Made by a program: the position numbers and the translations under genes. Positions 1,395-48,533 of a stretch of DNA of 64,000 nt are shown piece by piece. Location of the stretch: the NCBI GenBank assembly GCA_017479985.1, contig JAFVBL010000030.1, positions 2,509 through 66,508 on the forward strand, read 5' to 3'. Positions within the stretch are counted from its first letter, which is position 1; every line of letters starts with the position of its first letter. Source of the DNA: Alphaproteobacteria bacterium. GTDB lineage: Bacteria; Pseudomonadota; Alphaproteobacteria; RF32; CAG-239. Below the pieces are notes generated by a model. The model made no database searches. It was given only the letters and a program-made list of their open reading frames with translations, and had not been told where the DNA came from.

Positions 1395-2195
1395 CTATCT
1401 GAGCAAAATATGCTCAAACCACTTTTCCTGAAAAGCAACATCTTTTTCAATCTCCGCATTGTCCAAATCGTATGCTTCCGGCACCACAATCAACTTATCG
1501 TCATCATCGTTTGTCCGATGCACAACCCCGATACAGCGCCCGACATATTCTTGCAACGGCTTATCTTCCATCAACACATAAGCATCTAATTCTTCGCCGT
1601 CGCCTGATTTTGTAAACGGAACAAATCCGTAATTTATCGGATACTCAAAGCCGTATTTGGGATGTTTACTGCCAAGCGGACGATCAATCCGCACAAAAAC
1701 CTGCTTGCCGATATATTGTGTTGCCGCTGCATTATGCAATACCACCGGATAATCATCTTCATAATTCCACGGTTCATATTGCTTGGCAAGCGTGTTAAAC
1801 GCATTTTCATCTATCAAAAGCGAGGAATCATCATTTTCGGTTCGTGTCAAAGTGCGACGTTTTGCTTCACCTAAACCACATTCGGTTATATGGAAAACAA
1901 CTTTTTCCGTCAGTGTTTTTGCCCACATAAAATATTCTTCACGCTTTGCGTGTGTCCAAAATCCGTAATCCAATATAACATCGCGTCCCCGTGCAATATA
2001 TTCAGCCGTTTCCGCCCGAATAAAAGCATCGACCAGTGCATATTTTTCCTGAAAATTATCCGGATTCCGTCCGTAACGTGCAAACATTATCTCATCGTGC
2101 GTCAACCGCACCGCCGGAATTTCTTTTTCCAGCCGTTTGGCAGCCGTTGTTTTGCCAAACCCCATAAACCCGACCATTAAATGTATTACTGCCAT
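1395..2195 (-). CDS. Fusion protein: N-terminal P-loop kinase-like domain plus C-terminal family-I inorganic-pyrophosphatase-like domain
   Basis: Walker A MVGFMGFGKTTAAKRL sits at the N-terminus. The C-terminus YPINYGFVPFTKSGDGEELDAYVLMEDKPLQEYVGRCIGVVHRTNDDDDKLIVV matches the PPase core (YPxNYGFIPxT..DGDPLD..IGVL.M.D...D.K). Start chosen at the Met just before the P-loop. Confidence 0.6.
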   Translation of the reverse strand: MAVIHLMVGFMGFGKTTAAKRLEKEIPAVRLTHDEIMFARYGRNPDNFQEKYALVDAFIRAETAEYIARGRDVILDYGFWTHAKREEYFMWAKTLTEKVVFHITECGLGEAKRRTLTRTENDDSSLLIDENAFNTLAKQYEPWNYEDDYPVVLHNAAATQYIGKQVFVRIDRPLGSKHPKYGFEYPINYGFVPFTKSGDGEELDAYVLMEDKPLQEYVGRCIGVVHRTNDDDDKLIVVPEAYDLDNAEIEKDVAFQEKWFEHILLR

Positions 2196-2259
2196 TTCTT
2201 TTATCTCCCTGTTAAGCGGATTGAGCCGCACATTTCTGTCGCGAACACTGTTTTTAAAA

Positions 2260-3654
2260 TTATCGCGCCCCTATCAATGAAACAGAAGAAATCGTATCTC
2301 CCATTCCGACCAATGTTTTCGGCTGATTGACAATAATTGTCGGAACGGCAATCAAATCCGCACCGGTATATTCGGCAATACCGTTCTCGGAAAATTTCGG
2401 ATTATTCAAAACATTGGACAAAGCACGCATATTTTCCGCCGCAACATCACCAATGTCCTTACCGTGTGCCCATAACAGATTTTCCGACCGTTCAATATTG
2501 CCCAAACCGGCTTTTGATGCCGCAACCGTCGCTGCCAACATCATACCACGCCTGTTTGCTTCCGGAGAAACGGCAAACCCTTTATTTTGCAATGTCAGGT
2601 ACGTACCGTAAAAATGCAGTTGGATTCGCGGCGTTTGTAATTCTTCCTTAAGTTTATATAAAATATCAAGCAAAACCGGTGCAGTCAACGTAGAATTTTG
2701 CAACTTTGCAAACATTTCCGGTGCCGTAACCTCCAACGCATCAAGAGCTTCTCGCTCATTTAAACCGACGGAATCAACAAGCGGCGCAATACTATGCAAA
2801 ACAGCTTTGCGTATCGCTTTATCCTGTGTTGACGCCAATTCCAAATGAATAATGCCTTGCGGATTGTTATGTTTCCATTGTTGCACCAACGGCACAATTT
2901 TTTCGATTCGCGCCATTCCGCCGCGCGCCTGCGTCAAATTATGGAAACCGGATAAAATCATATAATCAAAACCGGCTTTTTCGATATATTTTAGAAAACC
3001 GTTATTGATTTTCAGCTCAATATTTGCCGTATCGTATGTGGCAATAAAGCGATTCGCCTTCGGGCAAACATATTTTTTTGTTTCAAACTCAAACACATCA
3101 TTACAATCAAACTCAATAATCTGATGAATAAGCGGCGCATCTTCGGCACAATCCATACTATATGCTTTTCCGATTGCACCGTTTTTATCAACCGCATATA
3201 AATTCGGCAAATCCAAAAACTGCTCAGCCTGCAATTTCGGCAGTGAATTTGTGTGTGCGCACACTTCGTTTACGCCAAGCACAGCCAGAACATTGGCAAC
3301 AATCCCCGCCTGACCGCCCATTTGCAATCGGTCATAGCCCAAATTGTCACGCATCCATTCATAAACCCGACCGTCTTCACACAGCCATTCTTCGGCAATC
3401 CCGTTTATGAAGCACTTCACAATACCGCGCACCACATCTTTCGGCGTAAATAAAAATGTTTCCGTTTGCAATAAATCCTCCGGTCGCAAATCAACCGTTC
3501 GTGCCAATTCGGAAAGCTGTTTACCGCTGATTTTAACCACCGCATCAATATTGGTATTAAACGCCGTTACCGCACGCCGCACTTCTTGCACACGCACCAA
3601 CTGCGCCGGCACATTTTCGTACGCACACCGCCATATTTCGCGCAAATCGGCCAT
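2260..3654 (-). CDS. ADP-dependent sugar kinase (ADP-PFK/ADP-GK family, ribokinase-like fold)
   Basis: Family motifs are present in order: AFNTNIDAV, LQMGGQAGIVAN, HLELAS, SVGLNEREAL, LHFYGTY, TLVGMGDTISS. The start overlaps the upstream stop by 1 nt (TAATG). Confidence 0.8.
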   Translation of the reverse strand: MADLREIWRCAYENVPAQLVRVQEVRRAVTAFNTNIDAVVKISGKQLSELARTVDLRPEDLLQTETFLFTPKDVVRGIVKCFINGIAEEWLCEDGRVYEWMRDNLGYDRLQMGGQAGIVANVLAVLGVNEVCAHTNSLPKLQAEQFLDLPNLYAVDKNGAIGKAYSMDCAEDAPLIHQIIEFDCNDVFEFETKKYVCPKANRFIATYDTANIELKINNGFLKYIEKAGFDYMILSGFHNLTQARGGMARIEKIVPLVQQWKHNNPQGIIHLELASTQDKAIRKAVLHSIAPLVDSVGLNEREALDALEVTAPEMFAKLQNSTLTAPVLLDILYKLKEELQTPRIQLHFYGTYLTLQNKGFAVSPEANRRGMMLAATVAASKAGLGNIERSENLLWAHGKDIGDVAAENMRALSNVLNNPKFSENGIAEYTGADLIAVPTIIVNQPKTLVGMGDTISSVSLIGAR

Positions 3655-4874
3655 TATTGCACCGCGTGTTCCAATTCTTTAAGGTGAATATTGGCAAGCG
3701 CGTTCATTATCAAACCGCTGACGGCATTGTTGAATTGAATATAACGAGAAACTTGCAAATACCATTCATTTAAAGGTTTTGAATCGACTTTGGCATATTT
3801 TTCGCTTGTTTTCATTGCATTCAACGCATCTTGGAACCGTCCTTCGTGCACCAACTCATAAACTTCATCATTTTGTGCCGTAAACACCGGACGCTCTTGT
3901 CCTTTTTTGACGACAATCGACTGTTTGAGCCAAACAAGAGCCTTTTCATACCATTTTTTCGCCGCATCGGCTTCAGATTTTTCTGCCATATCAATTTTTG
4001 TTTGCGAATTGTTTAACTCGGCAAAAACTTTATCAAAATTACGAATCAGCTGATTTTTACCCAAAACCCCGACATTGGCAAACATACGAACTGTCCGAAC
4101 ATAATTTTCCGCCAATTCGTTACCGCGGGCCAAAATTTGCAGCACTTCGGCTTCGTATGCAAAGCTGCCCCCCTGCTCGGCCAAATCGCGCACAATAATT
4201 GCACCGCTGGCCAACAAAACTTCTTGCGTTTTCTTTTCTGTTGCCGCCAAAGAAGCAATTTGCGGTTCAAGCAAAATACGACGCTGCTCCGGCAATGTTT
4301 CCGACTTCGGCTCATTTTCACCCTTAACGGCGGCAGATTCCGATTCGTTTGCTTCTGCCACATTCGGATTCTTTTCTGCAAATTGAGCCAAACGATATTC
4401 AAATTCATCACGCACGGCGGCAATTTTCTGATTAAGCTGATTTTCGCTCACACCGGCAACTTGTTCCACAATCGGTCTGTCTTTGAGTGCCGCCACTTCG
4501 CGCTCCAATATGTTTATTTTAACGGCAACGGCATTAACTTTTTCATCATACGCCGCTTGCAATTTTTGCAAAGCCGCGGCATTTTGTTCTTTGGTCTGTT
4601 GCAAACTGATTGCCAAAAATGCGACACACCCGAGCAAACATAAAAAGATAAAAAACACAAACTTCCGCCAACCGTGATGCTTATGATGCGGCGGTTCCGG
4701 CTTTTCCGGCTTCGGTCCTTTATGCGGTTCCGGCTTCGGCAATTTTTCCTCTTGTTTCCGATGCAGTGCCGTTTCAAAAATCGCCGCCGTCGATTCGGTA
4801 ATTTTTTCCGGCGCAGCCGTTACTTCCGATTCTTTAACAGGTTTATTTTCCGTTTTGTTCTCATTTTTAGCCAT
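3654..4874 (-). CDS. Mic60/mitofilin-like (HemX-like) membrane-anchored coiled-coil protein
   Basis: Architecture is a Pro/Lys/His-rich N-terminus, one TM (FVFFIFLCLLGCVAFLAISL), a coiled coil, then a C-terminal domain (...GGSFAYEAEVLQILA...VGVLGKNQLIRNFDKV...WYEKALVWLK...HEGRFQDALNAMK...PLNEWYLQVSRYIQ). This pattern fits the alphaproteobacterial mitofilin domain. It is divergent from tsaD. Confidence 0.5.
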   Translation of the reverse strand: MAKNENKTENKPVKESEVTAAPEKITESTAAIFETALHRKQEEKLPKPEPHKGPKPEKPEPPHHKHHGWRKFVFFIFLCLLGCVAFLAISLQQTKEQNAAALQKLQAAYDEKVNAVAVKINILEREVAALKDRPIVEQVAGVSENQLNQKIAAVRDEFEYRLAQFAEKNPNVAEANESESAAVKGENEPKSETLPEQRRILLEPQIASLAATEKKTQEVLLASGAIIVRDLAEQGGSFAYEAEVLQILARGNELAENYVRTVRMFANVGVLGKNQLIRNFDKVFAELNNSQTKIDMAEKSEADAAKKWYEKALVWLKQSIVVKKGQERPVFTAQNDEVYELVHEGRFQDALNAMKTSEKYAKVDSKPLNEWYLQVSRYIQFNNAVSGLIMNALANIHLKELEHAVQ

Positions 4875-4975
4875 TTTCGTATCCTTTTTCTTGACATTTT
4901 GCCCGAATATATTTCATATATTTATAACAAAAATAGTTTAAAGTGAATAAATAAAATCATTTTTTAAGGAAAACA

Positions 4976-6049
4976 ATGATTGTTTTGGGAATAGAAAGCA
5001 GTTGTGATGATACCGGCGCCGCGGTTGTAACCGATCAAAAAGAAATCCTCGGCGAAGCGTTGCAATCACAGGAAGAACATAAGCAATACGGCGGTGTCGT
5101 ACCGGAAATTGCCGCACGCGCACACTTGGAACATATTGATGAAATTGTATCACTGTGTTTGCAACGTGCGCATATTGAACTTAATCAGGTTGATGCCGTT
5201 GCCGCTTCGTGCGGTCCGGGGTTAATAGGCGGTGTCGTGGTCGGTGCAATGACGGCAAAAGCCTTGGCTTTGGCACTTGATAAACCTTTTATCGCCGTCA
5301 ATCACTTGGAAGGACACGCCCTTTGTGCCCGTATAGCCAATGATATCCGTTTCCCGTATTTACTCTTGCTTGTTTCGGGCGGACATTGTCAAATTCTGGT
5401 GGTTAAAAATGTCGGAGAATATGAGCGTCTCGGTACAACAATCGATGATGCTGCCGGTGAAGCTTTTGATAAAGTTGCAAAAATGCTCGGTTTAGGGTAT
5501 CCGGGCGGTCCGATGATTGAAAAAATGGCGGCAATCGGTGACGATTCGCGCTTTACGTTGCCGCGTCCGCTCTTAAATTCCGGCGACTGCAATCTCTCTT
5601 TTTCGGGCTTAAAAACCGCCGTGCGCAAAATCATCGAATCATACACCCAGGACGGCATTGTCGAACACGCCATTTTACCGAAACAGGATGTTGCCGATAT
5701 TTGTGCCTGTTTTCAAATGACGGCAACCGATTGTTTGGTACGCAAACTCGAACGCGCGATTAAATATTTCAAACAAAAATATCCCGACGGCGAACATTTG
5801 GTTGTTTCTGGCGGTGTTGCCTCAAACACATATTTACGAAACGCCCTCAAAAAATTGGCCGCCGACAATGATTTGGAATTTGCCGCACCGCCGATTCGTT
5901 TTTGCACCGACAACGGCGTTATGGTTGCGTGGGCAGGACTGGAACGCTACCGCTTGGGTTACACCAACAGTCTGGACTTTAAACCGCGTCCGCGTTGGCC
6001 GCTTGATGAAACCGCGCCCAAAGCTCCCGGCGCCGGGGTCAAAGCATAA
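4976..6049 (+). CDS. tsaD: tRNA N6-adenosine threonylcarbamoyltransferase TsaD
   Basis: Full-length Kae1/TsaD-like sequence (GIESSCDDTG..., HLEGH, GGVASN). Confidence 0.95.
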   Translation: MIVLGIESSCDDTGAAVVTDQKEILGEALQSQEEHKQYGGVVPEIAARAHLEHIDEIVSLCLQRAHIELNQVDAVAASCGPGLIGGVVVGAMTAKALALALDKPFIAVNHLEGHALCARIANDIRFPYLLLLVSGGHCQILVVKNVGEYERLGTTIDDAAGEAFDKVAKMLGLGYPGGPMIEKMAAIGDDSRFTLPRPLLNSGDCNLSFSGLKTAVRKIIESYTQDGIVEHAILPKQDVADICACFQMTATDCLVRKLERAIKYFKQKYPDGEHLVVSGGVASNTYLRNALKKLAADNDLEFAAPPIRFCTDNGVMVAWAGLERYRLGYTNSLDFKPRPRWPLDETAPKAPGAGVKA

Positions 6050-6064
6050 CAAAGGAGACCGAAA

Positions 6065-6715
6065 ATGCGTTCAAAAAAAGACATTCTTGCAATTATGAAA
6101 ATTTTTGCTTCAGAAAATCCCAATCCGCAATGTGAGCTGCATTTTCATAACCCGTACACATTGCTTGTTGCCGTTATGCTTTCGGCACAAAGCACGGATA
6201 AAGGCGTAAACAAGGCGACCGAAGCTTTGTTCAAAATCGCCGATTCACCGCAAAAAATATTGGCCCTCGGCGAAGAAAAACTCAAAGATTACATCAAAAC
6301 TATCGGCTTGTTTAACAATAAAGCCAAAAACATTATGCTTATGAGCAAACAGCTTATTGAGGATTTCGGTGGCGAGGTTCCTGCCGACCGCGACACCTTA
6401 ACCACACTTGCCGGTGTTGGTCGCAAAACCGCAAACGTTGTGATGAACGTATGGTATCATCAGCCGACGTTGGCCGTTGATACGCACGTTATGCGCATCG
6501 CGCATCGGCTTGAATTCAGCCGCGGCAAAACACCGCTTGAGGTGGAAACCGATTTAATGAAAGTTTTACCGCCGGAATTTATTATCAATACAAATCATTG
6601 GCTGGTGCTGTTCGGTCGCTATATATGCAAAGCACAAAAACCGCTTTGCGCACAGTGTCCGATTTATGATTATTGCAATTGCAAAGATAAACAACCGCGC
6701 CCGATAAAGGAGTAA
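6065..6715 (+). CDS. nth: Endonuclease III
   Basis: HhH-GPD region (LAGVGRKTANVV) and C-terminal 4Fe-4S cluster loop CKAQKPLCAQCPIYDYC. Confidence 0.95.
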   Translation: MRSKKDILAIMKIFASENPNPQCELHFHNPYTLLVAVMLSAQSTDKGVNKATEALFKIADSPQKILALGEEKLKDYIKTIGLFNNKAKNIMLMSKQLIEDFGGEVPADRDTLTTLAGVGRKTANVVMNVWYHQPTLAVDTHVMRIAHRLEFSRGKTPLEVETDLMKVLPPEFIINTNHWLVLFGRYICKAQKPLCAQCPIYDYCNCKDKQPRPIKE

Positions 6716-6720
6716 AAAAG

Positions 6721-8556
6721 ATGAAAAAAACACTGTTCGGCTTTATTTTTTTCGTATGTTTGTTGATTTCTTCCCCAATGCACGCTGCCGAAGATTTAAT
6801 CAACGCCGAAATCTTAAAAAATCACTTTACCGATATGGCATATTTTACAAAATGGTATCAATCGCTTAATCAGACAGATAAAAATCAAGTGCTCGGCGGA
6901 ACTGTCGCGTTATGCGAGCCGGATTTAACCGAAATCGCCCTGCAAAACGGCGGCGACGTAAATACTCCCGTATATGTTTTGCACCAATTTTTACATCATC
7001 TCGGCAATAATTTTTACGATACGCTGATATATACTTATAACACAAAAGAAGCAATGCTTGCCGATGCCGAAACCCGATTGGCCGGAGAAAAAACAAACGA
7101 AAAAATGAACAGCAAAAAGCATCAAACAGTCTGGACCCCGAATTTTGCAGAATTTGAAGAATCTTCTTTGTTGAAACAAACACTCAAAAACAGCAACGCA
7201 CAATGCTCCTGTGCAAAAAAGATTCGCTTGGTTCGGATTCTTTCGGAACACGGCACTCCGACGGATATACAGGATATTTTTACGCAGCTCTTATATACAT
7301 TGGAAGATGATGAATATACCGAAAACCATAATTCCGAACAAACAACGGATAATTCCTGTATGGACTTGCTGCACTTTGTGCTCAAAACCTTACCGAAAGA
7401 ACTTATCGATGAAAATACGATGACTTCCGCTTTAATTCAGGCATATTTCAATAATTCACCGGAAGTTGTCGATGTATTAAAAAATGCCGGATTCAAAATC
7501 TATCCGCAAACCCAAGCGGCTTATGACGGATTCCTGACTGCCGCCGCTCAAGATGATTTACCGCTTTTGCAGCAATTGCTTGACGCGGGCGTAAATATCG
7601 ATTACCAAAACGAAAACGGAGATACGGCACTTGCACTGTCCGTTCGCCACAACAATGCTCATATTGCCGCATTTTTACTTGAAAACGGTGCCGACCCGCT
7701 TTTGAAAAATCACAAAAACCAATCACCTTTTTATGAATGCGGATACGATATATGTCGTTTGCATCAAGAGGGGTTAAAAGAATTTCAGGCAACCGGTGTA
7801 AATGCCGCTTGGTCACTAAAAGACGCCGTAGAAAAAAACAATTGCGAAGTCATCAATGCTTATCTGGAAAAAAATTACAACCCATATACCGACGTTTTCG
7901 GTACACCGTTACTGTTTCTTACGCTTCAAAATCCGGAAAAATCGCTTTGTCTGCCGAATATTTTGAAAGGCGGTCTGCCACTCGATATTGTTAAAAAAGA
8001 TGGACTTGTTCCGCTTTTGTATGCCGCCCAAAAACACAATTTTGAAGCCGTTCGCCAACTGATTGAACACGGTGCTCAAATTGACGCGCAGGACCAAAAT
8101 GACAATACGGCACTGACCTATGCCGTGATTGACGGTGATATTGCAACAATTCGCTTTTTATTGGAAAATAAAGCAAAAACAAATATCCGCAACAAAAAAG
8201 GGGTTACCGCATTGCTATATGCCGCCAAACACAACAATCTTGCCGCTGTCAAATTATTGGTTGAACACGGCACAAACATCAATGAACACGATAAAAACGG
8301 CAACACTCCTTTGCATTATTCCATACCGAATAACAATGCCGAAATGGCAGAATTTTTGCTTGCACACGAGGCAAAGACGGATATTAAAAATGTTGACGGA
8401 TTAAGTGTTCTGAATATCTGCGCACAAAAAACATACAAAAAAACCAAAAGTTGCAAAGTTATTCGGCAGACATTAGAAGATAAAAACACACAACAAACAG
8501 AACCGCAAACCGCACCGGATTCGGTAAAACCAAACTCTACGGATAAAAAAGAATAA
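6721..8556 (+). CDS. Secreted ankyrin-repeat protein
   Basis: Signal peptide MKKTLFGFIFFVCLLISSPMHA. The C-terminal half carries multiple ANK units (GDTALALSVRHNNAHIAAFLLENGADP, DNTALTYAVIDGDIATIRFLLENKA, GVTALLYAAKHNNLAAVKLLVEHGTN, GNTPLHYSI...). Confidence 0.85.
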   Translation: MKKTLFGFIFFVCLLISSPMHAAEDLINAEILKNHFTDMAYFTKWYQSLNQTDKNQVLGGTVALCEPDLTEIALQNGGDVNTPVYVLHQFLHHLGNNFYDTLIYTYNTKEAMLADAETRLAGEKTNEKMNSKKHQTVWTPNFAEFEESSLLKQTLKNSNAQCSCAKKIRLVRILSEHGTPTDIQDIFTQLLYTLEDDEYTENHNSEQTTDNSCMDLLHFVLKTLPKELIDENTMTSALIQAYFNNSPEVVDVLKNAGFKIYPQTQAAYDGFLTAAAQDDLPLLQQLLDAGVNIDYQNENGDTALALSVRHNNAHIAAFLLENGADPLLKNHKNQSPFYECGYDICRLHQEGLKEFQATGVNAAWSLKDAVEKNNCEVINAYLEKNYNPYTDVFGTPLLFLTLQNPEKSLCLPNILKGGLPLDIVKKDGLVPLLYAAQKHNFEAVRQLIEHGAQIDAQDQNDNTALTYAVIDGDIATIRFLLENKAKTNIRNKKGVTALLYAAKHNNLAAVKLLVEHGTNINEHDKNGNTPLHYSIPNNNAEMAEFLLAHEAKTDIKNVDGLSVLNICAQKTYKKTKSCKVIRQTLEDKNTQQTEPQTAPDSVKPNSTDKKE

Positions 8557-14338: not shown

Positions 14339-15040
14339 TCAGTTAAACACCCAAGTAATATTGTTTCCGCTTTCGGCGCATTGCCCGACGCTGTCACCGC
14401 CTGTACCGGTCAGTATCGAGCGTTTCATCGGAAAGGCACAGATTGTTTTTCCGTCAGCATCTTTACCACACTCTCCCGAATCCAGTTGCGTTAATTCATC
14501 ACCCTTTCCTTTACTATCACCGTATGCTAACCAAAACCAACCGATATCATTTATGTATACCGCATATAAATCGACATATTGATTCTTCGTCCAATTCTTC
14601 ATTGCCAATTCAATACATTGTTTTTTATTCAAACCGGCATAAGTGATGCTGAATTGATCTTTTCTTTTACACTTTTCATCACAATACCCCATTTCCTCGC
14701 AGCAATCAGGGTCATAATTTGGCGATTCTTCAATTTTTACTTCCCCGCCGAAAACGTGAAACAGCTTTTTCCCGACCTTACGAAAATTCGGCGGAATAAT
14801 TTTCATTTTATTATCTCCGTTTACATCTTCAATAACAAACGTATAATCCACATCAAGAGCGGCAGCCTTAACCATAGATGTTGCCAAATCCGTCACTTGC
14901 ATCGTTGCTGTACTGTAGCGGTGATTATTAAACGCCGAGCTGACGATTTTGCCGATGGCGACAATCACCGACATCATCACCATTAAGTAGCCCATCATTT
15001 CGACCATCGAACGGCCTTTTTCGGAATTTTTATAATTCAT
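14339..15040 (-). CDS. Type IV pilin-like / pseudopilin-like protein
   Basis: Class-III signal peptide-like N-terminus MNYKNSEKG/RSMVEMMGYLMVMMSVIVAIG (Glu at +5) and a Cys-rich C-terminal domain. Confidence 0.55.
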   Translation of the reverse strand: MNYKNSEKGRSMVEMMGYLMVMMSVIVAIGKIVSSAFNNHRYSTATMQVTDLATSMVKAAALDVDYTFVIEDVNGDNKMKIIPPNFRKVGKKLFHVFGGEVKIEESPNYDPDCCEEMGYCDEKCKRKDQFSITYAGLNKKQCIELAMKNWTKNQYVDLYAVYINDIGWFWLAYGDSKGKGDELTQLDSGECGKDADGKTICAFPMKRSILTGTGGDSVGQCAESGNNITWVFN

Positions 15041-16789: not shown

Positions 16790-16902
16790 TAAAAATCCGG
16801 AGAATGAGTCAGATACGCAGTTACCCTTTTCGCGCGGTGTACAACAAACAAGGTACATAAGCGAAAAGGGTAACAAGTAGATGACCATTATACGGATTTT
16901 TA
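16790..16902 (-). repeat. Extended imperfect hairpin element, copy A (likely also a bidirectional terminator)
   Basis: Outer arms TAAAAATCCG / CGGATTTTTA. Inner 14-bp stem GTTACCCTTTTCGC (16820-16833) / GCGAAAAGGGTAAC (16861-16874). The 27-nt loop contains GTGTACAACAAACAAGGTACATAA. It sits between convergent genes, 3 nt from the stop of the minus-strand gene. Confidence 0.7.
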
Positions 16903-16905
16903 AAC

Positions 16906-17073
16906 TTAATATTTAGGAATATTGTTAATACACTTATCCGGATTTTCTTGGCAATATGCACGGTCGTTATGATAATTGTACAGTTCTTTGCGGTCTTCGC
17001 GGAGTTTGCCGGCAACAAGTGCCGAACAGGAAGAAATCAGCAACAATGCAATTACAAAAAGAATTTTTTTCAT
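16906..17073 (-). CDS. Small lipoprotein (55 aa)
   Basis: MKKILFVIALLLISSC lipobox. Start chosen at the Met preceding the signal peptide. Confidence 0.5.
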   Translation of the reverse strand: MKKILFVIALLLISSCSALVAGKLREDRKELYNYHNDRAYCQENPDKCINNIPKY

Positions 17074-17084
17074 ATTTTTTCTCC

Positions 17085-22526: not shown

Positions 22527-23534
22527 ATGTTTGAAAATAAATGTATTTTAACCGGTGTCAAACCGACCGGAAAACCGCATATCGGTAACTATTTCGGCGC
22601 AATTTTGCCAGCAGTGAAAATGGCAAACGAAGCCGCGCGCTTTAATCTGTTTATTGCCGATTATCACGCCATAAATTTTATGAAAAACGCCGAAATGTTA
22701 CAGCAGGAAATCAAAGAGATTGCCTGTATTTATTTGGCTGCCGGTCTGGACCCGAAAAAACATTATTTCTATCGTCAGTCCGATATTCCGGAAATCAATG
22801 AAATTACAACAATTCTCTATGCTTTTACGCCTAAAGGATTTATGAATAAATCTCACGCCTACAAAGCTGCGGTTGATAAAAATCTTGAAGCCGGCAAACC
22901 GACCGACGATGGTATCAATATGGGACTTTACACTTATCCGACCTTGATGGCAGCCGATATTTTGGCAATGGATACCGATACCGTACCGGTCGGCAAAGAT
23001 CAAATTCAGCACGTTGAAATTGCTCGTGACATTGCCGGTGCAATCAATGCATACTATGACAAAGAGCTGCTCAAGCTTCCGGATTATGTTACGGCAAATA
23101 ATGTTGCGGTTTTACCGGGGATTGACGGACGTAAAATGAGCAAATCCTATAACAATGTCATTCCGATATTTGAAGACGATAAAATCATCAAAAAAGCCGT
23201 ATACTCAACCGTAACGGATTCGCGCCCGCCGGAGGAACCGAAAAATCCTGAAGAAATTATCGTATATCAAATCTATAAATGCTTGGCTCCGCAAGAAAAA
23301 GTTGAAGAAATGGCTGCCGGTTTACGTGAAGGCAAGCTCGGCTACGGACATATAAAAGCAATGCTCTTGGATACAATTTTGCAACAAACCAAAGACGCCA
23401 AAGAGGTTTACAACTACTATATGGCGCACTATGACGAAGCACGCGGCGCACTTGAAGAAGGTGCGGCCAAAGCCCGACCGTTTGCACAAGCTACATTGGC
23501 GCGTCTTAAAGAAACTTTGTTCGGAAACTTATAA
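22527..23534 (+). CDS. trpS: Tryptophan--tRNA ligase
   Basis: HIGH-type motif GKPHIGNY and KMSKS present; 335 aa. Confidence 0.93.
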   Translation: MFENKCILTGVKPTGKPHIGNYFGAILPAVKMANEAARFNLFIADYHAINFMKNAEMLQQEIKEIACIYLAAGLDPKKHYFYRQSDIPEINEITTILYAFTPKGFMNKSHAYKAAVDKNLEAGKPTDDGINMGLYTYPTLMAADILAMDTDTVPVGKDQIQHVEIARDIAGAINAYYDKELLKLPDYVTANNVAVLPGIDGRKMSKSYNNVIPIFEDDKIIKKAVYSTVTDSRPPEEPKNPEEIIVYQIYKCLAPQEKVEEMAAGLREGKLGYGHIKAMLLDTILQQTKDAKEVYNYYMAHYDEARGALEEGAAKARPFAQATLARLKETLFGNL

Positions 23535-23635
23535 AATTCCGCTAATCGGAAATATTTATTTTCGGTATTGCAGGCGATAGACTTTTTTAAGAACGACCGA
23601 CGTTCCTTTTTCTGCAAGAGGTGTCTTTTTTCAAG

Positions 23636-23665
23636 GCTCTGTTAAACAAAATTGTTTAACAGAGC
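23636..23665. terminator. Bidirectional intrinsic terminator between trpS and alaS
   Basis: Perfect 13-bp stem GCTCTGTTAAACA / TGTTTAACAGAGC with a 4-nt loop and T-rich sequence on the plus-strand side. Confidence 0.7.
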
Positions 23666-23674
23666 TCTCTTTTA

Positions 23675-26305
23675 TTAAGCTACCATTTTCTTAATAGTGG
23701 CGATTGCGTCATCAATTTTGGTAACATCGGCACCGCCGGCCTGCGCCATATCCGGCCGGCCGCCGCCACCCTGACCGCCGAGCACACCGGCTGCCGCACG
23801 CACCATATCAACCGCATTATATTTACCGGTTAAATCCTTGCTGACACCAACCACAACCGAGGCTTTGCCGTCTTTATCGGAACATAAAACAACAACGCCT
23901 GAACCGATTTTTTGTGTAATATCATCAACAAACGCTTTCAATTCTTTCGGATGCGCATCAGGAACTCGTTTGCCGACAAATTTAACACCGTTTACGGTTT
24001 CAACTTCATCATTGGCAGAAGATTGACCGCTTGCCAAATTCTTTTTCAAATTAAATATTTCCGCCTCAAGTTTTTTACGTTCTTCAAGTAAACCACCGAT
24101 TCGCGCCTCTAAATCATTGATGTTTGTTTTCAGACTTGCCGCTACGTTATGCAGTTTATCTTCCAGATGACGCACATACGAGTCCGCACTGCAACCGGTT
24201 ACACACTCCAAACGACGCACACCGGCCGCCACCGCTGATTCGGATAAAATATGGAAATAGCCGATATTACCGGTCGAACAAACGTGTGTACCGCCGCAAA
24301 GTTCACGCGAGAACGGCTCTTGTTCATCACCCATCGTTACCACACGTACATCATCGCCGTATTTCTCGTCAAATAAAGCCATCGCACCGAGAGCCACTGC
24401 CTCATCTTTATTCATAATCACGGTGTTTACCTTCAAATCGCAACGAATTTGCTCATTGACGATATCTTCCACTTTGCGAATTTGCTCTGCCGTAATCTGC
24501 TTCGGATGCGAAATATCAAAACGCATTCTGCCGGCTTCAACTGCTGACCCTTTCTGCGCCACGTGGTCGCCCAAAACAATTTTCAGCGCCTTATGCGCCA
24601 AATGCGTGACCGAGTGATTGGCGCAAATTTTTGCACGATTCTGCGCATCTACCGCAAAATTGGCAAAATCACCGACTTTTACCGTACCGCTTTGTAATTC
24701 GCAAATATGAACATAAACATCGCCGAGTTTCGGTTTGCAATCCGTTACTTTGGCTGTAAAGTTCTTTGAAGAAATCATACCGATATCACCGACCTGACCG
24801 CCGCGTTCGGCATAAAACGGTGTTTGATTGGCAACCAATTCAAACTTGCCTGAAGTTACTTCCGAAACTTCCGCATCATTTTGCACCAACGCTTTGATTT
24901 CGCCATCGGCTTTTAAAGTGTTATAACCCAAAAACTCGGTTGCGCCGCATTTGTCTTTCACGCCATACCAAACTTTTGCCGTACCTTCATCACCGGAACC
25001 GGCCCAATTTTTACGTGCTTCTGCTTTTTGTTTTTCCATACACGCATTAAAACCTTCAACATCAACTTCTATATTTTTATTTTTAAGCGCATCTTGTGTT
25101 AAATCCAGCGGAAATCCGTATGTATCATAAAGGCGGAAAGCCGTCTCGCCATCAAGCTTGGCGCCCGTAGCCAACTTTGCAACTTCTTCATCAAGCAATT
25201 TCAATCCTTTATCAAGTGTACGTCCGAAACGTTCTTCTTCAATCTCTATTGTTTCCTTAATCAACGTTTCACGGGCATAAAGTTCCGGATAAGCCTCACC
25301 CATTTCTTTTTGCAATGTCGGCAACAATTTATAAATCATCGGCTCCTTAACACCGAGCATATAAGCGTGACGCATTGCCCGACGCATAATCCGGCGCAAC
25401 ACATAACCGCGCCCTTCGTTAGACGGCAACACCCCGTCGGCAATCAAAAAGCTGATGGCACGCAAGTGGTCGGCAATCACGTTATGCGACGCTTTAAGCG
25501 GACCGTTCGGATCGGTATTGGCAATATCGGCAATCGCTTTAATCAATTGTTGGAACATATCTGTTTCAAAATTGGAGTGAACGTTTTGCAAAATCGCGGC
25601 CATACGTTCCAATCCCATACCGGTATCGATTGACGGACGTTTTAAGTTAATACGTGAACCGTCAGGCAAATCTTCAAACTGATCAAACACCAAATTCCAA
25701 ATTTCGATATATCTGTCACCGTCTTCCTCCGGTGTCCCCGGCAAACCGCCCCAAACTTCCGGACCGTGGTCATAAAAAATCTCAGAACACGGACCGCACG
25801 GACCGGTGTCACCCATCTGCCAAAAATTATCCTTGGTGGCAATGCGGATAATACGGTCTTCCGGCAAACCGGATACCTTTTTCCATATATCGTGTGCTTC
25901 GTCATCATTATGATAAATCGTTACAACCAACTTTTCTTTCGGCAGGCAAAATTCTTTAGTCAGCAATTCCCACGCATACGGAATGGCATAATCTTTAAAA
26001 TAATCACCAAACGAAAAATTGCCGAGCATTTCAAAAAACGTATGATGCCGCACATCATAGCCGACACTGTCCAAATCATTATGCTTACCGCCGGCACGCA
26101 CGCTTTTCTGCGCGGTTGCCGCTCGTGTATAATCACGCGTTTCATTACCGGCAAGTATGTTTTTAAACTGCACCATACCGGAGTTGGTAAACATCAAAGT
26201 CGGGTCATTATCCGGCACCAAAGAAGATGACGGAATAATCTTATGACCGTTCTTTTTGAAATAATCCAAGAATGTTTTACGAATTTCATTTACACCGACT
26301 GTCAT
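23675..26305 (-). CDS. alaS: Alanine--tRNA ligase
   Basis: 876 aa with a class II catalytic core, editing-domain HxxxH/CxxxH (HSVTHLAH ... CGGTHV) and a C-terminal DHHA1-like tail. Confidence 0.97.
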
Positions 26306-31507: not shown

Positions 31508-32215
31508 TTATTTTCGCACATCAAAAATTTCGAATTTGGTATGCAAATACTCAAGTAAGGCGGTATCATTGAAAAACTTATCACAATCACTTTCTTTTGT
31601 TGTTGTATCACTCTGAATCGGACGATATTTCTGAATATAATATTCTTTAACTCCGAGTGCAGAAAGTTCATCGGCTATTTTATAAATATCGGCAATATCC
31701 AGCAATCGCGGATCACAAGTTGTCCGACACTCAAAATGCTTACCGCTTTTAATCAGCATATTGAGGCTTTGTTTTATTTTTTCCACATCACCGATACCGC
31801 CGGTTGCGCGTTTATAGTGTTCGGCATCAAACGGTGCTTTTATATCAAAACCGACCCAAACGACTTTATCCAAAACCTTAGCAAAAGCCTCCGGATTATA
31901 TCCGCCGGTGTGCATTGCCGCCTCAAACCCCATTTCAATAACTTTTTCCATTGCCTGCGGCAAATTACTCTGCATCAACGGCTCACCGCCGGAAAATACC
32001 ACCGCATCTATAATCCCTTTGCGATGTTCCAACAAATGCACCAAATGCGCCCAAGAAGCACCGGATTCACCGTTCGGATTCTGCAAGGATTGATTATAGC
32101 AAAACGGACACCGCCACGGACAGCCCTGCATAAAAACAACAACAGCCATCTTAGAAGGAAAATCGACGATACTGAATTTCTCAATATCGCCGATTCTGAT
32201 TAAATCAGTAACCAT
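31508..32215 (-). CDS. nrdG: Anaerobic ribonucleoside-triphosphate reductase activating protein (radical SAM)
   Basis: CPWRCPFCYN radical-SAM cluster motif, directly downstream of the nrdD pieces. Confidence 0.9.
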   Translation of the reverse strand: MVTDLIRIGDIEKFSIVDFPSKMAVVVFMQGCPWRCPFCYNQSLQNPNGESGASWAHLVHLLEHRKGIIDAVVFSGGEPLMQSNLPQAMEKVIEMGFEAAMHTGGYNPEAFAKVLDKVVWVGFDIKAPFDAEHYKRATGGIGDVEKIKQSLNMLIKSGKHFECRTTCDPRLLDIADIYKIADELSALGVKEYYIQKYRPIQSDTTTKESDCDKFFNDTALLEYLHTKFEIFDVRK

Positions 32216-32225
32216 AAGCCGAAAC

Positions 32226-32444
32226 TTATTCCGCAGCCATTTGGCAACCGCACGGTTCTTCCAAACTCAGATGCATAACCGCTTTTTCTTCTTCAAAACA
32301 TTTACGGGAATAATATTCCGATTTTTTACCTTTGTTAAATTCTGAAACCGGACGATGATATCCCATTACGCGGGTCCACACTTCGCACGGTTGGCGTTCT
32401 GCATCTGTTAAAGCAATGTCTTCAAAATTGATTGTATTTGTCAT
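32226..32444 (-). CDS. Stand-alone glycyl-radical segment of class III RNR (NrdD C-terminal piece, 72 aa)
   Basis: CEVWTRVMGYHRPVSEFNKGKKSEYYSRK matches the NrdD C-terminal glycyl-radical consensus (RVxGY ... N.GK..E...R). It has its own RBS GGGAGA 6 nt before the ATG. Confidence 0.7.
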   Translation of the reverse strand: MTNTINFEDIALTDAERQPCEVWTRVMGYHRPVSEFNKGKKSEYYSRKCFEEEKAVMHLSLEEPCGCQMAAE

Positions 32445-32498
32445 TTATATTCTCCCAAGTGTTTTGTTAAAGTGTTTTTGTATTCTGTTTTAAGCTTT

Positions 32499-34598
32499 TT
32501 AAGCAACGTTACTTGCTTTATAAGCTTTCATTTTTGCCGCCTTCTTTTCTTCGTCGCATTTCGGGCAGAATTTGTGCTCGCCGGCTAAATAACCGTGTTT
32601 CGGACAAATTGAGAAGGTTGGCGTTATAGTAATATATGGCAGACGATAATTGGTCAGAACTTTTTTAATCAGTTCACCGCATACCTTTGCCGAAGAAATT
32701 CTTTGGCTCATATAGAGGTGCAGCACGGTGCCGCCCGTATATTTTGATTGCAATGTTGCCTGCAAATCCAAGGCCTCAAACGGATCGTCGGTATATCCCA
32801 CCGGCAATTGCGATGAATTGGTATAATACGGATTCTCTTCCGTGCCGGCTTGAATAATGCCCGGAAAACGCTTTTTATCTTCACGTGCAAAACGGTATGT
32901 TGCACTCTCGGCCGGCGTAGCTTCCAAATTGTACATATGACCGGTTTCTTCTTGAATCTTAATCAGTTTGGCACGAATGTAATCCAAAAATTTCTCGGCA
33001 AATGCTTTACCCCATTCGTCAGCAATATCGTGTTCGCCGTTTGTATAATTGCAAATCATTTCGTTAATGCCGTTCACCCCTATGGTCGAGAAGTGATTGC
33101 GCAAAGTTCCGAGATAGCGTTTTGTATACGGATATAAGCCGTTATCAATCAAACGCTGAATGGTTTTACGTTTGATTTCCAAAGATGTACGTGCAATATT
33201 CAAAAGCTCATCAATACGTCCGAACAATCCGGCCTCATTGCCTTTATAAACATAACCCAAACGCGCGCAGTTAAATGTTACAACGCCGATGGAACCTGTT
33301 TGCTCGGCCGAACCGAACAAGCCGTTACCTTTTGCCAACAATTCACGCAAATCGAGTTGCAAACGGCAGCACATTGAACGAATCTGCCCCGGTTTCAAAA
33401 CCGAATTGATAAAGTTTTGGAAATAAGGCATACCGTATTTTGCGGTCATCTCAAACAAAAGCTGCGATTTAGGATCGTCCCACGGAAAATCCGGTGTCAT
33501 ATTATAAGTCGGAATCGGGAATGTAAACGGACGATCCATTACGTCGCCTTCCATCATCACTTCGATATAGGCTCGGTTAATCATATCCATTTCTGCTTGC
33601 AAATCACCGTACGTAAACGGCATTTCTTCCTGACCTTCGATAATCGGCATAAAGTTTTCATCGTGACCGGCAATATGACCGCCGATATACGGATGCTGAT
33701 CACGCAAATCTTCCGGACAGACCCAATCAAACGTAAAGTTTGTAAACGGTGTTTGCGAACCCCAACGAGAAGGTACGTTCAAATTATATACCAACTCTTG
33801 CATACATTGTTTAACTTCTTCATACGAAAGATTATCTTTACGAATGTACGGCGCCAAATATGTATCCACTGACGAAAATGCTTGCGCACCGGCCCATTCG
33901 TTTTGCAATGTTCCCATAAAGTTAACCATTTGTCCCGTTGCAGCCGATAAGTGCTTCGGCGGATTCGCTTCCGCTTTGCCGCGAACGCCGTTGAATCCTT
34001 CTTTAAGCAATGTTTTTAAAGACCAACCGGCACAATAAGCGGCAAGCATATCCAAATCGTGAATATGAATATCGCCGTTGCGATGCGCTTCACCGACTTC
34101 TGCCGGATATACGTGACTCAACCAATAGTTTGCCGTCACTTTTCCGGATACGTTCAAAATCAAACCGCCGTTAGAATATCCCTGATTTGCATTTGCATTG
34201 ACACGCCAATCAAGTTTTTCCAAATATTCATTGATAGAGCTTTCTACATCTACCATAACTTTATGGTCGGTACGTGCACGTGTACGTTGATCACGATACA
34301 AAATATATGCCTTTGCCGTTGCCGTATAGTTTGAAGAAATCAAAGCCTGTTCGACAATATCCTGAATTTGCTCGATGCTCGGCACGGATTCGGCAAACTT
34401 ATAATTAGCCACCTTCATTACCTGCGCCGTCAAAAGCCAAGCATCAGCCTCCCCAAACTCACCTGTTGTGGTGCCTGCTTTCAAAATTGCGTTATAAATT
34501 TTACTGCCGTCAAAATCGGCAAGCATTCCGTCACGTTTTGTAACGTGTTTTATATTTGTATGTATATTACTCGTATTCATTTGGTGCACTTCGGCCAT
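32499..34598 (-). CDS. nrdD: Anaerobic ribonucleoside-triphosphate reductase, large piece (ATP-cone + barrel + Zn region, no glycyl-radical motif)
   Basis: N-terminal ATP-cone (VTKRDGMLADFDGSKIYNAI). Typical NrdD core (…CCRLQLDLREL…, …YYTNSSQLPV…). It ends ...TFSICPKHGYLAGEHKFCPKCDEEKK...* without RVxGY. Confidence 0.9.
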   Translation of the reverse strand: MAEVHQMNTSNIHTNIKHVTKRDGMLADFDGSKIYNAILKAGTTTGEFGEADAWLLTAQVMKVANYKFAESVPSIEQIQDIVEQALISSNYTATAKAYILYRDQRTRARTDHKVMVDVESSINEYLEKLDWRVNANANQGYSNGGLILNVSGKVTANYWLSHVYPAEVGEAHRNGDIHIHDLDMLAAYCAGWSLKTLLKEGFNGVRGKAEANPPKHLSAATGQMVNFMGTLQNEWAGAQAFSSVDTYLAPYIRKDNLSYEEVKQCMQELVYNLNVPSRWGSQTPFTNFTFDWVCPEDLRDQHPYIGGHIAGHDENFMPIIEGQEEMPFTYGDLQAEMDMINRAYIEVMMEGDVMDRPFTFPIPTYNMTPDFPWDDPKSQLLFEMTAKYGMPYFQNFINSVLKPGQIRSMCCRLQLDLRELLAKGNGLFGSAEQTGSIGVVTFNCARLGYVYKGNEAGLFGRIDELLNIARTSLEIKRKTIQRLIDNGLYPYTKRYLGTLRNHFSTIGVNGINEMICNYTNGEHDIADEWGKAFAEKFLDYIRAKLIKIQEETGHMYNLEATPAESATYRFAREDKKRFPGIIQAGTEENPYYTNSSQLPVGYTDDPFEALDLQATLQSKYTGGTVLHLYMSQRISSAKVCGELIKKVLTNYRLPYITITPTFSICPKHGYLAGEHKFCPKCDEEKKAAKMKAYKASNVA

Positions 34599-37048: not shown

Positions 37049-37165
37049 TTTCAATCCTTTACTTATAAAATATCTGTGGCTATAATAATCGTTAAAAATT
37101 AACATTTTATTACACTTTTTCTTTTAATATACATTATAAGTGTAAAATTGAGGTTAAAATTTAAA

Positions 37166-37942
37166 ATGGTTTCGATACTTGGTACATTATTTAAATATAA
37201 AGAAAAAGAATCACCGGATTCTTTGGGATATTTTCCGGAACGTATACACGTTGAAGCTTTTCCGGAACGCCGATACTTATGGACATCACGATTTTTGGTT
37301 ATCGTGACCTGCCTGAGTATCTGCTTCAATATGATGCTTTCAAGTATTATTTATCTGATTTTACCGAGTTATCACGTTGAGCCGCAACTGTTTGTCATCA
37401 ATCACGAAACAAACCAGCTGGAACTGTTTGAAAAAGACGAAATCCGTTATTATGCCAGTGACTTGATTGCCGAACAATATATCCGTGATTATATTATGCT
37501 TCGCTACACCATTACGGAAGATTACGCCGAACTCAAAGAAAGATGGGGCAAAAACTCTATTCTTTATTGGTATTCGACCGAGCAAATATATCGCGAATTT
37601 CAAGACAAAGACGTTAAAACCGCCGATGAACAATTCAAACTTTTGGGGTTACAGCGATACGTTGAAATTATGTGGACAAAGCACGTCTCCGTTTCTATGT
37701 GGATGGTTGAATTTAAAACATACGATATAACCAGAGATAACCCTACACCGAAAGTGGATTTATGGCGCGCCACCGTACGTGTCGGATACGATAAAGATAT
37801 GCACTTCAAACGACCGGAAGATCGGATTTTAAATCCGTACGGATTTTTGGTATTCAGCTACACATTGTCTTATCTGGGTGATGTTCACGGCGGTGACAGT
37901 GAGGTTAAAAATACACTCAAATACAATATGATGATGTTTTAA
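37166..37942 (+). CDS. VirB8-family protein (orphan)
   Basis: N-terminal TM (FLVIVTCLSICFNMMLSSIIYLIL) and periplasmic part with VirB8-like blocks (VEPQLFVINHETNQL, AEQYIRDYIMLRYT, WRATVRVGYD, NPYGFLVFSYTLS). ATG at 37166; a TTG at 37148 is an alternative. Confidence 0.6.
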   Translation: MVSILGTLFKYKEKESPDSLGYFPERIHVEAFPERRYLWTSRFLVIVTCLSICFNMMLSSIIYLILPSYHVEPQLFVINHETNQLELFEKDEIRYYASDLIAEQYIRDYIMLRYTITEDYAELKERWGKNSILYWYSTEQIYREFQDKDVKTADEQFKLLGLQRYVEIMWTKHVSVSMWMVEFKTYDITRDNPTPKVDLWRATVRVGYDKDMHFKRPEDRILNPYGFLVFSYTLSYLGDVHGGDSEVKNTLKYNMMMF

Positions 37943-43869: not shown

Positions 43870-44176
43870 AAAAATCAGGATAATGTGCGTAAATACAAAG
43901 AAGGATTTTTTCACAGTGTACAACAAAAGGTACATAAGAAAAAATCACTCTCTCCGGCACAGCCTTAATAAAAACTCGTAGAATTAGGTTAATACAAAGA
44001 AGGATTTTTTCACAGTGTACAATAAAAGGTACATAAGAAAAAATCACCCTCTCCGGCACAGCCTTAATAAAAACTCGTAGAATTAGGTTAATACGAAGAA
44101 GGATTTTTTCACAGTGTACAACAAAAGGTACATAAGAAAAAATCCTTCAAGTAGTAACCAATTATACGAGTTTTTA
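43870..44176 (-). repeat. Three tandem 99-bp units; the rho-proximal unit (44068-44176) is a complete extended hairpin element (copy B)
   Basis: Period is 99 bp (TAC at 43894, 43993, 44092). Copy B has outer arms TAAAAACTCGTA (44068-44079) / TACGAGTTTTTA (44165-44176). Its inner 12-bp stem is GAAGGATTTTTT (44098-44109) / AAAAAATCCTTC (44137-44148). The 27-nt loop is CACAGTGTACAACAAAAGGTACATAAG. The right arm overlaps the rho stop codon. Confidence 0.8.
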
Positions 44177-45427: not shown

Positions 45428-45863
45428 AAAAAACCTTTATTGATTGTTAAAAAAGAAAACGAACCATTGAAATATTCGCTAAACCTTATATATTTAATTT
45501 ATAAATAAATGTCAATCTTTTTTACACAGAAAAAAAAACATATAATATATTTAAAAAAAAGATTATTGTTATTTGTATATCCTTGTGCTTTATGTGTATA
45601 AAAATATATTATTTAATTTATAAACCGTTTTTATTTTTTGTATTTTAATAAATTTTTAACAATTCAATATGTTAATAAAAAGTTAATTTTTTTATCAACA
45701 TAATTCACAGTATGTGTAAAATTTTATCAAGATGTTAATAACTGATTTGAATGTTTTTACAATATGTATATATTTTGATAAAACTTTCATAAAAACGGAA
45801 TTTATACACAATTCAAGGTGTATTTGTGTATAAATTATATAACCTTTTGTTTTAGGATATAAA
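45428..45863. other. Candidate chromosomal replication origin (oriC); also holds the rho leader and coaE promoter
   Basis: 436-bp AT-rich gap between divergent rho and coaE-dnaQ. It has 3 perfect TTATNCACA DnaA boxes, 2 TTTTACACA variants, 2 8/9 matches, and two TTAA-N7-TTAA motifs. Confidence 0.45.

Positions 45864-48457: not shown

Positions 48458-48533
<76 letters not shown>

Follow-up and report, generated by a model that had tools for sequence, protein, structure and literature searches.

A stop-codon-anchored, dispersed palindromic repeat family at gene 3′ ends in uncultured gut and rumen Alphaproteobacteria

The 64-kb stretch of alphaproteobacterial DNA studied here (referred to as the window) carries two long hairpins, copies A and B (or units A and B), each lying on the minus strand at the 3′ end of a minus-strand gene. 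Copy A (16790-16902) follows a small lipoprotein-like gene (16906-17076, minus strand), which encodes 55 residues from its ATG, is also called at 55 residues on an independent contig, and yielded no match in a Pfam search. Copy B (44068-44176) follows rho (44174-45427, minus strand; Pfam domains Rho_N, Rho_RNA_bind and ATP-synt_ab). An earlier note on this DNA had quoted both hairpin sequences, and these were found at the coordinates it gave. Its placement of the hairpins immediately after a stop codon held only approximately: the rho stop codon TAA (44174-44176) lies within copy B as its first triplet, and at copy A the stop codon TAA of the small gene (16906-16908; stop-codon offset -5) is followed by GTT before the in-frame TAA that forms the end of the element. 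The same note had described these minus-strand elements in the sense opposite to that of the attached gene, and they are read below in the sense of that gene (gene sense) unless the plus sense of the window is named. Both hairpins are members of a previously uncatalogued, lineage-specific family of dispersed palindromic DNA repeats, which uncultured Alphaproteobacteria of gut and rumen carry roughly once every 30-40 kb.

A full unit of this family measures ~112 bp. In gene sense it opens with an A-run, which includes the stop codon or lies directly against it. The outer stem, which co-varies, and the middle stem come next, and a conserved asymmetric internal loop (CTACTTG opposite CTGCGTAT) separates them from an inner stem of 12-14 bp; an almost invariant apical block (CTTATGTACCTTTTGTTGTACACCGC) and a closing T-run complete the unit. 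Unit A reads TAAAAATCCG...CGGATTTTTA in gene sense; in plus-strand coordinates, its inner stem occupies 16820-16833 and 16861-16874 around an apical region at 16834-16860, in which TGTAC, a 10-nt loop and GTACA form a mini-hairpin (16838-16857, minus strand) that is the most conserved block of the family. The corresponding inner stem of unit B lies at 44098-44109 and 44137-44148 around an apical region at 44110-44136, and the loop of copy A carries 2 additional bases. The inner stems are wholly different yet perfectly complementary, as had been claimed (GTTACCCTTTTCGC/GCGAAAAGGGTAAC in A versus GAAGGATTTTTT/AAAAAATCCTTC in B), and the reported co-variation of the outer stems is equally real (TCCG/CGGA versus CTCG/CGAG). 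A middle stem that had gone unmentioned co-varies as well (AATGaGTCA/TGACCATT versus AATTaGGTTA/TAACCAATT). The alignment thus shows the two copies to have the apical block and the internal loops in common, and not the inner stem. What had been described as a 27-nt loop is indeed a conserved apical region, but not a plain loop, because it holds the mini-hairpin of 5-6 bp.

Both copies were predicted to fold stably on either strand, with copy A reaching -53.3 kcal/mol on the plus strand (z = -12.2) and -44.9 on the minus strand, and copy B -45.0 (plus) and -42.7 kcal/mol (minus; z = -13.9 and -12.0, respectively). The z-scores of the two copies spanned -8.5 to -13.9, and 0 of 200 shuffled sequences folded as well. 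As single-stranded DNA, the copies still folded at -27.7 and -27.9 kcal/mol (z = -9 to -12), far below the shuffles. The core pattern TGTACAAYAAA(N0-4)AGGTACA occurred 4 times in the window, always on the plus strand, versus 0 occurrences expected.

One scan of species-representative genomes with this core pattern returned 36 loci of 8 kb (designated by L numbers). Thirty-one of these came from 15 uncultured alphaproteobacterial or 'proteobacterium' genomes that had been assembled from metagenomes of rumen, goat, sheep, roe deer and human gut, with a single genome contributing up to five loci. The other five (Clostridia, Nonlabens, Bacillaceae) lacked the flanking arms and were discarded as chance matches to the 20-mer. 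A covariance model (R1), built from an alignment of 20 full hairpins (117 columns), revealed 62 matches in the window and the 31 loci, 34 of which were full length; unit A scored 120.6 bits (nhmmer model positions 3-111) and unit B 106.8 bits. As a negative control we searched 420 kb comprising 80 other alphaproteobacterial rho loci, retrieved through a metagenome scan with Rho, and obtained 0 matches. At the Rfam gathering threshold the only match in the window was a tRNA (tRNA-Thr with anticodon CGT at 48458-48533, also the sole match with ARAGORN), the best match overlapping an element (E = 1.2) being far below threshold. Collections of viral contigs, plasmids and phages contained no match to the element, so that nothing points to a phage or plasmid origin. 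The dispersed-family reading put forward in the earlier note is thereby borne out by 34 full copies in 15 related genomes, with conserved loops and co-varying stems, and its proviso that there might be no further copies, or no loop conservation in relatives, is removed.

Covariation was pervasive. RNAalifold predicted 38 pairs for the 20 full hairpins, with compensatory changes in 29, and across all 34 full copies 31 of the 38 pairs had changed on both sides. Stem positions were paired in 96.4% of cases across these copies, versus 74.4% in shuffles, and pairing dropped to 33-42% when the partner column was slid by 1-3 positions. The stem pairs of TGTAC/GTACA, on the other hand, were identical in 32-33 of 33 distinct copies. 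Inner stems fell into about a dozen unrelated self-complementary types (e.g., GTTACCCTTTGCGC, GTWAGCGGGTTGGC, AAAGGGTTTCTCGC and GGGGGATTTTGACGACG), which are common to several genomes and show smaller compensated differences within a type. The covariation therefore stems from a limited number of lineages plus smaller-scale events. Fold-back copying was rejected as the source of complementarity, because the arms hold conserved non-complementary loops and a bulge. The idea that linkers or arms contain a sigma-54 or sigma-70 promoter was dropped as well: GGCAC...TGC has a spacing one base too short, which moreover lacks conservation, and the TATAAT of the 5′ arm simply complements the other arm.

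The position of the element relative to its gene proved equally constrained. The gene adjoining its right end (plus sense of the window) lay on the opposite strand in all 32 cases in which an open reading frame (ORF) was present there. The stop codon was at most 2 nt from model position 1 in about 21 of the 34 full copies, and at most 8 nt away in about 28 of them. In gene sense the element begins TAA-AAATCCG..., the stop codon usually being TAA, with TAG in L023 and L026. The clear exception is a ~450-aa putative histidine-kinase gene, where 43-46 nt separate stop codon and element. All copies lie between genes, and the neighbour on the far side is variable, on either strand and 23-590 nt away. 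An arrangement between convergent genes, as previously proposed, therefore holds in the window but not in the family, ~1/3 to 40% of whose members comply. The attached genes (rho, the histidine-kinase-like gene, small lipoproteins and others) are functionally unrelated.

Copy B turned out to be the last unit (plus sense) of a 99-nt tandem array (43892-44144; 2.6 copies, 97% matches) that the earlier note had missed; in gene sense it heads the array, and two truncated units trail it at 43872-44037. In plus sense these two units have kept the left arm and the apical hairpin, the right arm being replaced by a 32-nt linker. Read in gene sense, all on the minus strand, unit B is followed by the linker (44038-44069; TATTAAGGCTGTGCCGGAGAGGGTGATTTTTT, with relatives in other genomes), truncated unit 1 (43971-44037; model positions 43-110 by nhmmer and alignment, 38.5 bits with the covariance model), a second copy of the 32-nt linker (43939-43970), and truncated unit 2 (43872-43938; nhmmer model positions 43-109, 38.4 bits), in which the 3′ arm is starting to diverge. 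Truncated unit 1 lacks the 5′ arm and retains the unit from the apical hairpin onwards (3′ inner-stem strand, 3′ arm and T-run); on its own it folds weakly (-9.5 kcal/mol as DNA).

Across the family, 38 arrays were parsed with nhmmer in gene sense, with model positions counted along the gene-sense unit. A full unit opened 34 of them and was trailed in 26 of these 34 by 1-4 units without 5′ arm but with a T-run end; wherever an array contained a full unit, this came first in 34 of 35 cases. The 3′ ends of truncated units fell at model positions 108-111 in 54 of 60, and their starts peaked at positions 38-47, just 5′ of the apical mini-hairpin. Units adjoin at T-runs or are joined by recurrent linkers of 8-32 nt that are related among genomes. 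Inner-stem types are often mixed within an array (L027, L036, L018, L001), indicating that arrays are not simple local duplications; array B of the window is homogeneous. No decay with distance from the gene was seen (0.56, 0.61, 0.53 and 0.49 bits per nt by truncated-unit rank). The absence of stacked right arms behind the arrays led us to reject simple nested insertion, and neither pure gene-proximal insertion nor pure distal addition accounted for all comparisons of orthologous arrays. Smaller duplications were also observed: in L025 (2170-2200) a tandem duplication covers the initial 12-13 nt of the element (AAAACCCGTATAA TAAAAACCCGTATAA), and L022 (7800-7980) carries three identical 63-nt truncated units, each preceded by AGTTGCTG. 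Contigs encoding proteins identical to those of the window belonged to the same strain only and revealed no presence/absence polymorphism. These independent assemblies (ends of L037, L119 and L120) all break inside array B, indicating that the repeat fragments short-read assemblies of these genomes.

Comparison of orthologous sites revealed that units are exchanged. At the rho site, the last 92 residues of Rho are identical between the window and UBA3307, and yet the inner-stem types differ (GAAGGATTTTTTC in the window, GTTACCCTTTGCGC in UBA3307), as do the truncated units. The orthologous site behind the putative histidine-kinase gene carries three different full units (L009; L027 and L030; L036). 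Following a 212-aa gene, L035 and L015 have the same linker and first truncated unit with different full units, which points to replacement of a whole unit. L014 is chimeric, with its 5′ arm from one type and its 3′ arm from another. Copy A itself shares 91-93% identity with copies that other genomes carry at unrelated sites, versus loop-and-arm similarity only to copy B. Empty sites were encountered as well. In L038, of which Rho is 89% identical, the element is absent and a plain terminator lies ~20 nt after the TAA; this was the one informative empty site of the rho scan, in which the other 79 of 80 loci came from distant Alphaproteobacteria because Rho is so conserved. Likewise, the L004 orthologue of a 180-aa gene has an ordinary terminator ~20 nt past its stop codon, where L029 and L032 carry the element. 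Separately, we noted that L028 (RGIG7040, sheep rumen; 1486-8000) is syntenic with window positions 23535-17024, at 80% nucleotide identity over 6.5 kb, and that a different neighbour gene with an element array of its own stands at the edge of this block.

Strand-specific signals were sought in the stems and in base composition. Among ~1220 stem positions (columns 49-70 excluded), 1149 were Watson-Crick pairs, 11 were G-T/T-G and 15 were A-C/C-A on the plus sense strand. Wobble pairs are thus as rare as A-C mismatches, and neither RNA strand is marked. This rarity is unlike typical structured RNAs and would fit if the DNA itself, or both of its transcripts, were constrained, or if the palindrome underwent internal repair. 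Conserved wobbles are confined to G-T pairs antisense to the attached gene, at columns 49-70 in 28 of 33 copies and at columns 28-89 in one subfamily. GC skew of the gene-sense strand was positive in 30 of 30 loci. Split by ORF strand, it amounted to +0.147 for same-strand and -0.025 for opposite-strand ORFs, which leaves a replication component of about +0.06 and makes the gene-sense strand of the element the leading-strand sequence, which is also that of the lagging-strand template. Within the window, an AT-rich 436-nt spacer (45428-45863) between the divergent rho and coaE genes contains four DnaA-box-like 9-mers with one mismatch each (45593-45833), and both GC skew and main gene orientation switch between ~45 and 51.5 kb. 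Chromosomal replication probably starts in this 45-51.5 kb region, ~1.3 kb from array B.

Taken together, we hold with moderate confidence that the family is a REPIN/MITE-like (miniature inverted-repeat transposable element-like) dispersed palindromic repeat that is anchored at stop codons, serves as the intrinsic terminator of the gene, and has been replaced repeatedly. The unit would make up the final 110 nt of the mRNA and form a long interrupted hairpin (~38 pairs) followed by U's, so acting as an intrinsic terminator and as a hairpin protecting the 3′ end; judging by its sequence, it could stop transcription from both sides. The terminator architecture read from the hairpins earlier agrees with what was found, as folds of -43 to -53 kcal/mol are followed by T5-7 downstream of the gene. 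A terminator role is suggested because hairpin and T-run sit where relatives hold plain terminators, whose place the unit would have taken. Moreover, a terminator scan found no other terminator-like site downstream of rho or of the small gene. The invariant asymmetric loops and the fixed orientation suggest strand-specific recognition, likeliest by a protein that copies or recombines the element. Copying between loci would keep up the family, with whole units being swapped at a given gene end, and older units would lose their 5′ arm and accumulate behind the full unit. Most genes of this genome do without the repeat, as indicated by an ordinary short hairpin terminator (23632-23668) between the convergent genes at 22527-23534 (plus strand) and 23675-26305 (minus strand).

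Several observations weigh against this interpretation. The simple terminator scan misses the hairpins themselves, of which the loops exceed its limit, and in L009 the gene-distal end carries no T-run. Among about 40 ORFs of the window, which are housekeeping genes, neither a transposase nor a reverse transcriptase nor an integrase was seen, and a low-power tblastn search with IS200 and IS608 TnpA queries returned nothing below E = 1. The single-unit sites (copy A, L031, L007 and L023) have no direct repeat at both borders and thus no target-site duplication. The antisense position of the conserved wobbles does not fit a purely mRNA-level role, two such events being too few to decide. Finally, gene-relative and replication-relative orientation cannot be separated in these loci.

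How the element spreads could be explained in several ways. Closest at hand are REPINs, extragenic elements in which compensatory changes preserve the hairpin, the arms are conserved while the spacer varies, and which probably act as single strands; in the underlying REP sequences, a GTAG immediately 5′ of each short palindrome is the guide and recognition motif, and a cognate RAYT (Y1/HUH) gene, itself bordered by the repeats, belongs to the same genome. The present family resembles them in being extragenic and of high copy number, in forming ~100-nt hairpins of two inverted arms with compensatory changes (a 38-pair consensus hairpin, 31 of these pairs changed on both sides, in copies between genes), in its occasional tandem clusters and decayed single arms beside intact doublets, and in having GTAG in one arm. 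It might then be moved as single-stranded DNA by an HUH/Y1 transposase (RAYT or an IS200/IS605-type TnpA) that cuts a hairpin of the lagging-strand template at fixed distances, orientation simply reflecting replication. This is a possibility that we consider unlikely. The stable single-stranded DNA folds, the Watson-Crick stems without wobble excess on either RNA strand, the skew, positive in 30 of 30 loci, that assigns the gene-sense strand to the lagging-strand template, the lack of target-site duplications (as in IS200/IS605 transposition) and the clustering of truncated-unit starts immediately on the 5′ side of the apical hairpin, which would be expected of a cut guided by a hairpin, all speak for it. 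However, the conservation pattern is the reverse of that of REPINs, since it is the inner stem that can be exchanged in this family, against almost unchanging apical and internal loops. The GTAG occurs in one arm only (CAAGTAG in plus sense of the window) and 3′ of the inner hairpin on its strand, where REPs need it 5′ of the short palindrome; GTAT stands in the other arm, with TTAG and CTAT in one subfamily. Exact stop-codon anchoring is not a known property of REP or IS200 elements, and neither the single orientation nor the ordered arrays of a full unit followed by 5′-truncated ones are REPIN features. No transposase domain, as a RAYT would carry, was detected in the about 40 window ORFs, and no Y1 transposase was seen in the ~310 kb formed by the 64-kb window and the 8-kb loci, the search being of low power.

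The same anchoring might alternatively define a non-autonomous mobile element of a new kind, which homes just 3′ of the stop codons of leading-strand genes with its own terminator and is copied by an end-anchored process templated by single-stranded DNA or RNA. We put this forward tentatively, as an unlikely reading. End-anchored copying would account for trailing units that have a 3′ end and no 5′ arm, a dedicated putative enzyme would take hold of the invariant loops, and the inner stem would stay complementary through copying or repair rather than through selection on the RNA. Copying primed at the 3′ end (SINE-like retroposition of the terminated mRNA tail, or other end-primed replication), which would add new and often 5′-incomplete copies after an existing T-run, appears improbable. 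It would explain why the 3′ end of truncated units is exact in 54 of 60 and the 5′ end variable, why arrays hold units of foreign inner-stem types, and why junctions lie at T-runs, which provide microhomology and would each represent the 3′ end of a terminated transcript. The starts nevertheless cluster at model positions 38-47 instead of spreading widely, recurrent conserved linkers separate the units, no reverse transcriptase was seen among about 40 window ORFs, and the gene-adjacent unit, which should be the oldest, differs between L035 and L015 despite their shared downstream units. Breakage at the hairpin tip followed by repair from an ectopic copy, leaving the old 3′ half behind a new full unit, fits parts of the data, namely the break points, the chimeras and the whole-unit replacement. 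An element that is primarily a cis-acting RNA in the 3′ untranslated region, with loops read by an RNA-binding protein or RNase for mRNA stability or for coupling translation termination to transcript fate, and with spread as a secondary matter, also seems doubtful to us. In its favour, the orientation of the element is strictly fixed to the attached gene, the asymmetric loops are invariant while the stems vary, and, given the established footprint of the ribosome on mRNA, a terminating ribosome would have to open a hairpin that starts at the stop codon. Against this, the gene-sense strand has no G-U excess, both conserved wobble positions become mismatches in the gene-sense RNA, the attached genes share no function, truncated units that do not fold accumulate, and no Rfam family matches. 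The free-standing structured RNA that had been suggested earlier finds no support either, in view of the same empty Rfam search, the lack of wobble excess on both strands, and the fact that the element invariably belongs to a gene's 3′ end. Lastly, the idea that ordinary terminators are alike by chance, or that one recent local duplication occurred in this genome, is refuted: the window does hold two full copies only, and array B does owe its tandem part to local duplication, but the same loops recur in full copies from 15 genomes, neither chance expectation in the window nor the control loci yielded a single occurrence, and copies A and B are alike in loops and arms only, not in the inner stem.

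Other known repeats were also compared with the family, which would work in the manner of REP/REPIN, Correia or ERIC-type repeats doubling as terminators. In MITEs, including the Correia elements of Neisseria, the terminal inverted repeats are fixed and match a transposase, and target-site duplications are present (TA for Correia). They resemble the present units in being dispersed, 100-150 bp long and co-transcribed, with inverted ends and mRNA hairpins that can act as terminators or processing sites. Membership of a MITE family (Correia or IS630-type) was rejected because target-site duplications are absent and the terminal stems show co-variation rather than a conserved sequence; relative to the gene end, moreover, both the place of insertion and its orientation are fixed here. 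MIRUs are non-palindromic and contain short ORFs that couple translation within operons, their start and stop overlapping the genes on either side. Like the present arrays, they consist of tandem intergenic units of 40-100 bp that are oriented with the adjacent genes and overlap the upstream stop codon with their ends; they were nonetheless rejected, as our units are palindromic, only the first is complete, and the downstream neighbour lies on either strand at 23-590 nt. Rickettsia palindromic elements (RPEs) insert in frame inside genes. Together with ERIC/IRU, Bru-RS and RIME they are lineage-specific palindromic repeats of ~100-150 bp without an enzyme of their own, but they have no sequence similarity to the family, in line with the empty Rfam, plasmid and phage searches, and none of them is known to start at stop codons and to be trailed by truncated units. 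CRISPR arrays, which combine regular repeat-spacer units with cas genes, and integron attC sites, which follow each cassette ORF of an array beside intI, were ruled out because units abut or have recurrent 8-32-nt linkers rather than unique spacers, and because the elements follow scattered housekeeping genes such as rho. Bidirectional intrinsic terminators share the succession of A-run, hairpin and T-run directly after the gene, in the same place as the plain terminators of relatives. Plain terminators differ in having 5-14 pairs without sequence conservation, versus ~38 pairs and conserved loops here, where the hairpin moreover starts at the stop codon itself and copies are homologous across loci and genomes.

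Some further features of the window deserve mention. It encodes a 611-aa ankyrin-repeat protein (6721-8556, plus strand) and a VirB8-like protein (37148-37942, plus strand), both of kinds often met in host-associated bacteria. A gene of the ADP-dependent phosphofructokinase/glucokinase family (2260-3654, minus strand) and an anaerobic ribonucleotide reductase with its radical-SAM activase (31508-34598, minus strand) are consistent with an anaerobic gut organism. A pentapeptide-repeat protein gene (55435-56493, plus strand) contains a 15-nt tandem repeat of 4.5 copies (55663-55730), and a 233-aa ORF (14339-15040, minus strand) without Pfam match has an N-terminus resembling a prepilin-type signal (KGRSMVEMMGYLMV).

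Small palindromic repeats such as REP, REPIN, Correia and ERIC are common yet poorly understood. The rules of the present family are unusually legible (copies point the same way and start at the stop codon, a complete unit precedes the truncated ones, and stems can be swapped while the loops stay invariant), and they limit how the family can be copied and what can recognise the element. Because wobble pairs are absent, the family also provides a test case for distinguishing maintenance of a hairpin at the DNA level from maintenance at the RNA level. The covariance model is ready for annotating these genomes and for explaining the contig breaks in their assemblies. If the units indeed function as exchangeable terminators, a share of the terminators in one uncultured gut clade would be a common, replaceable module rather than locally evolved.

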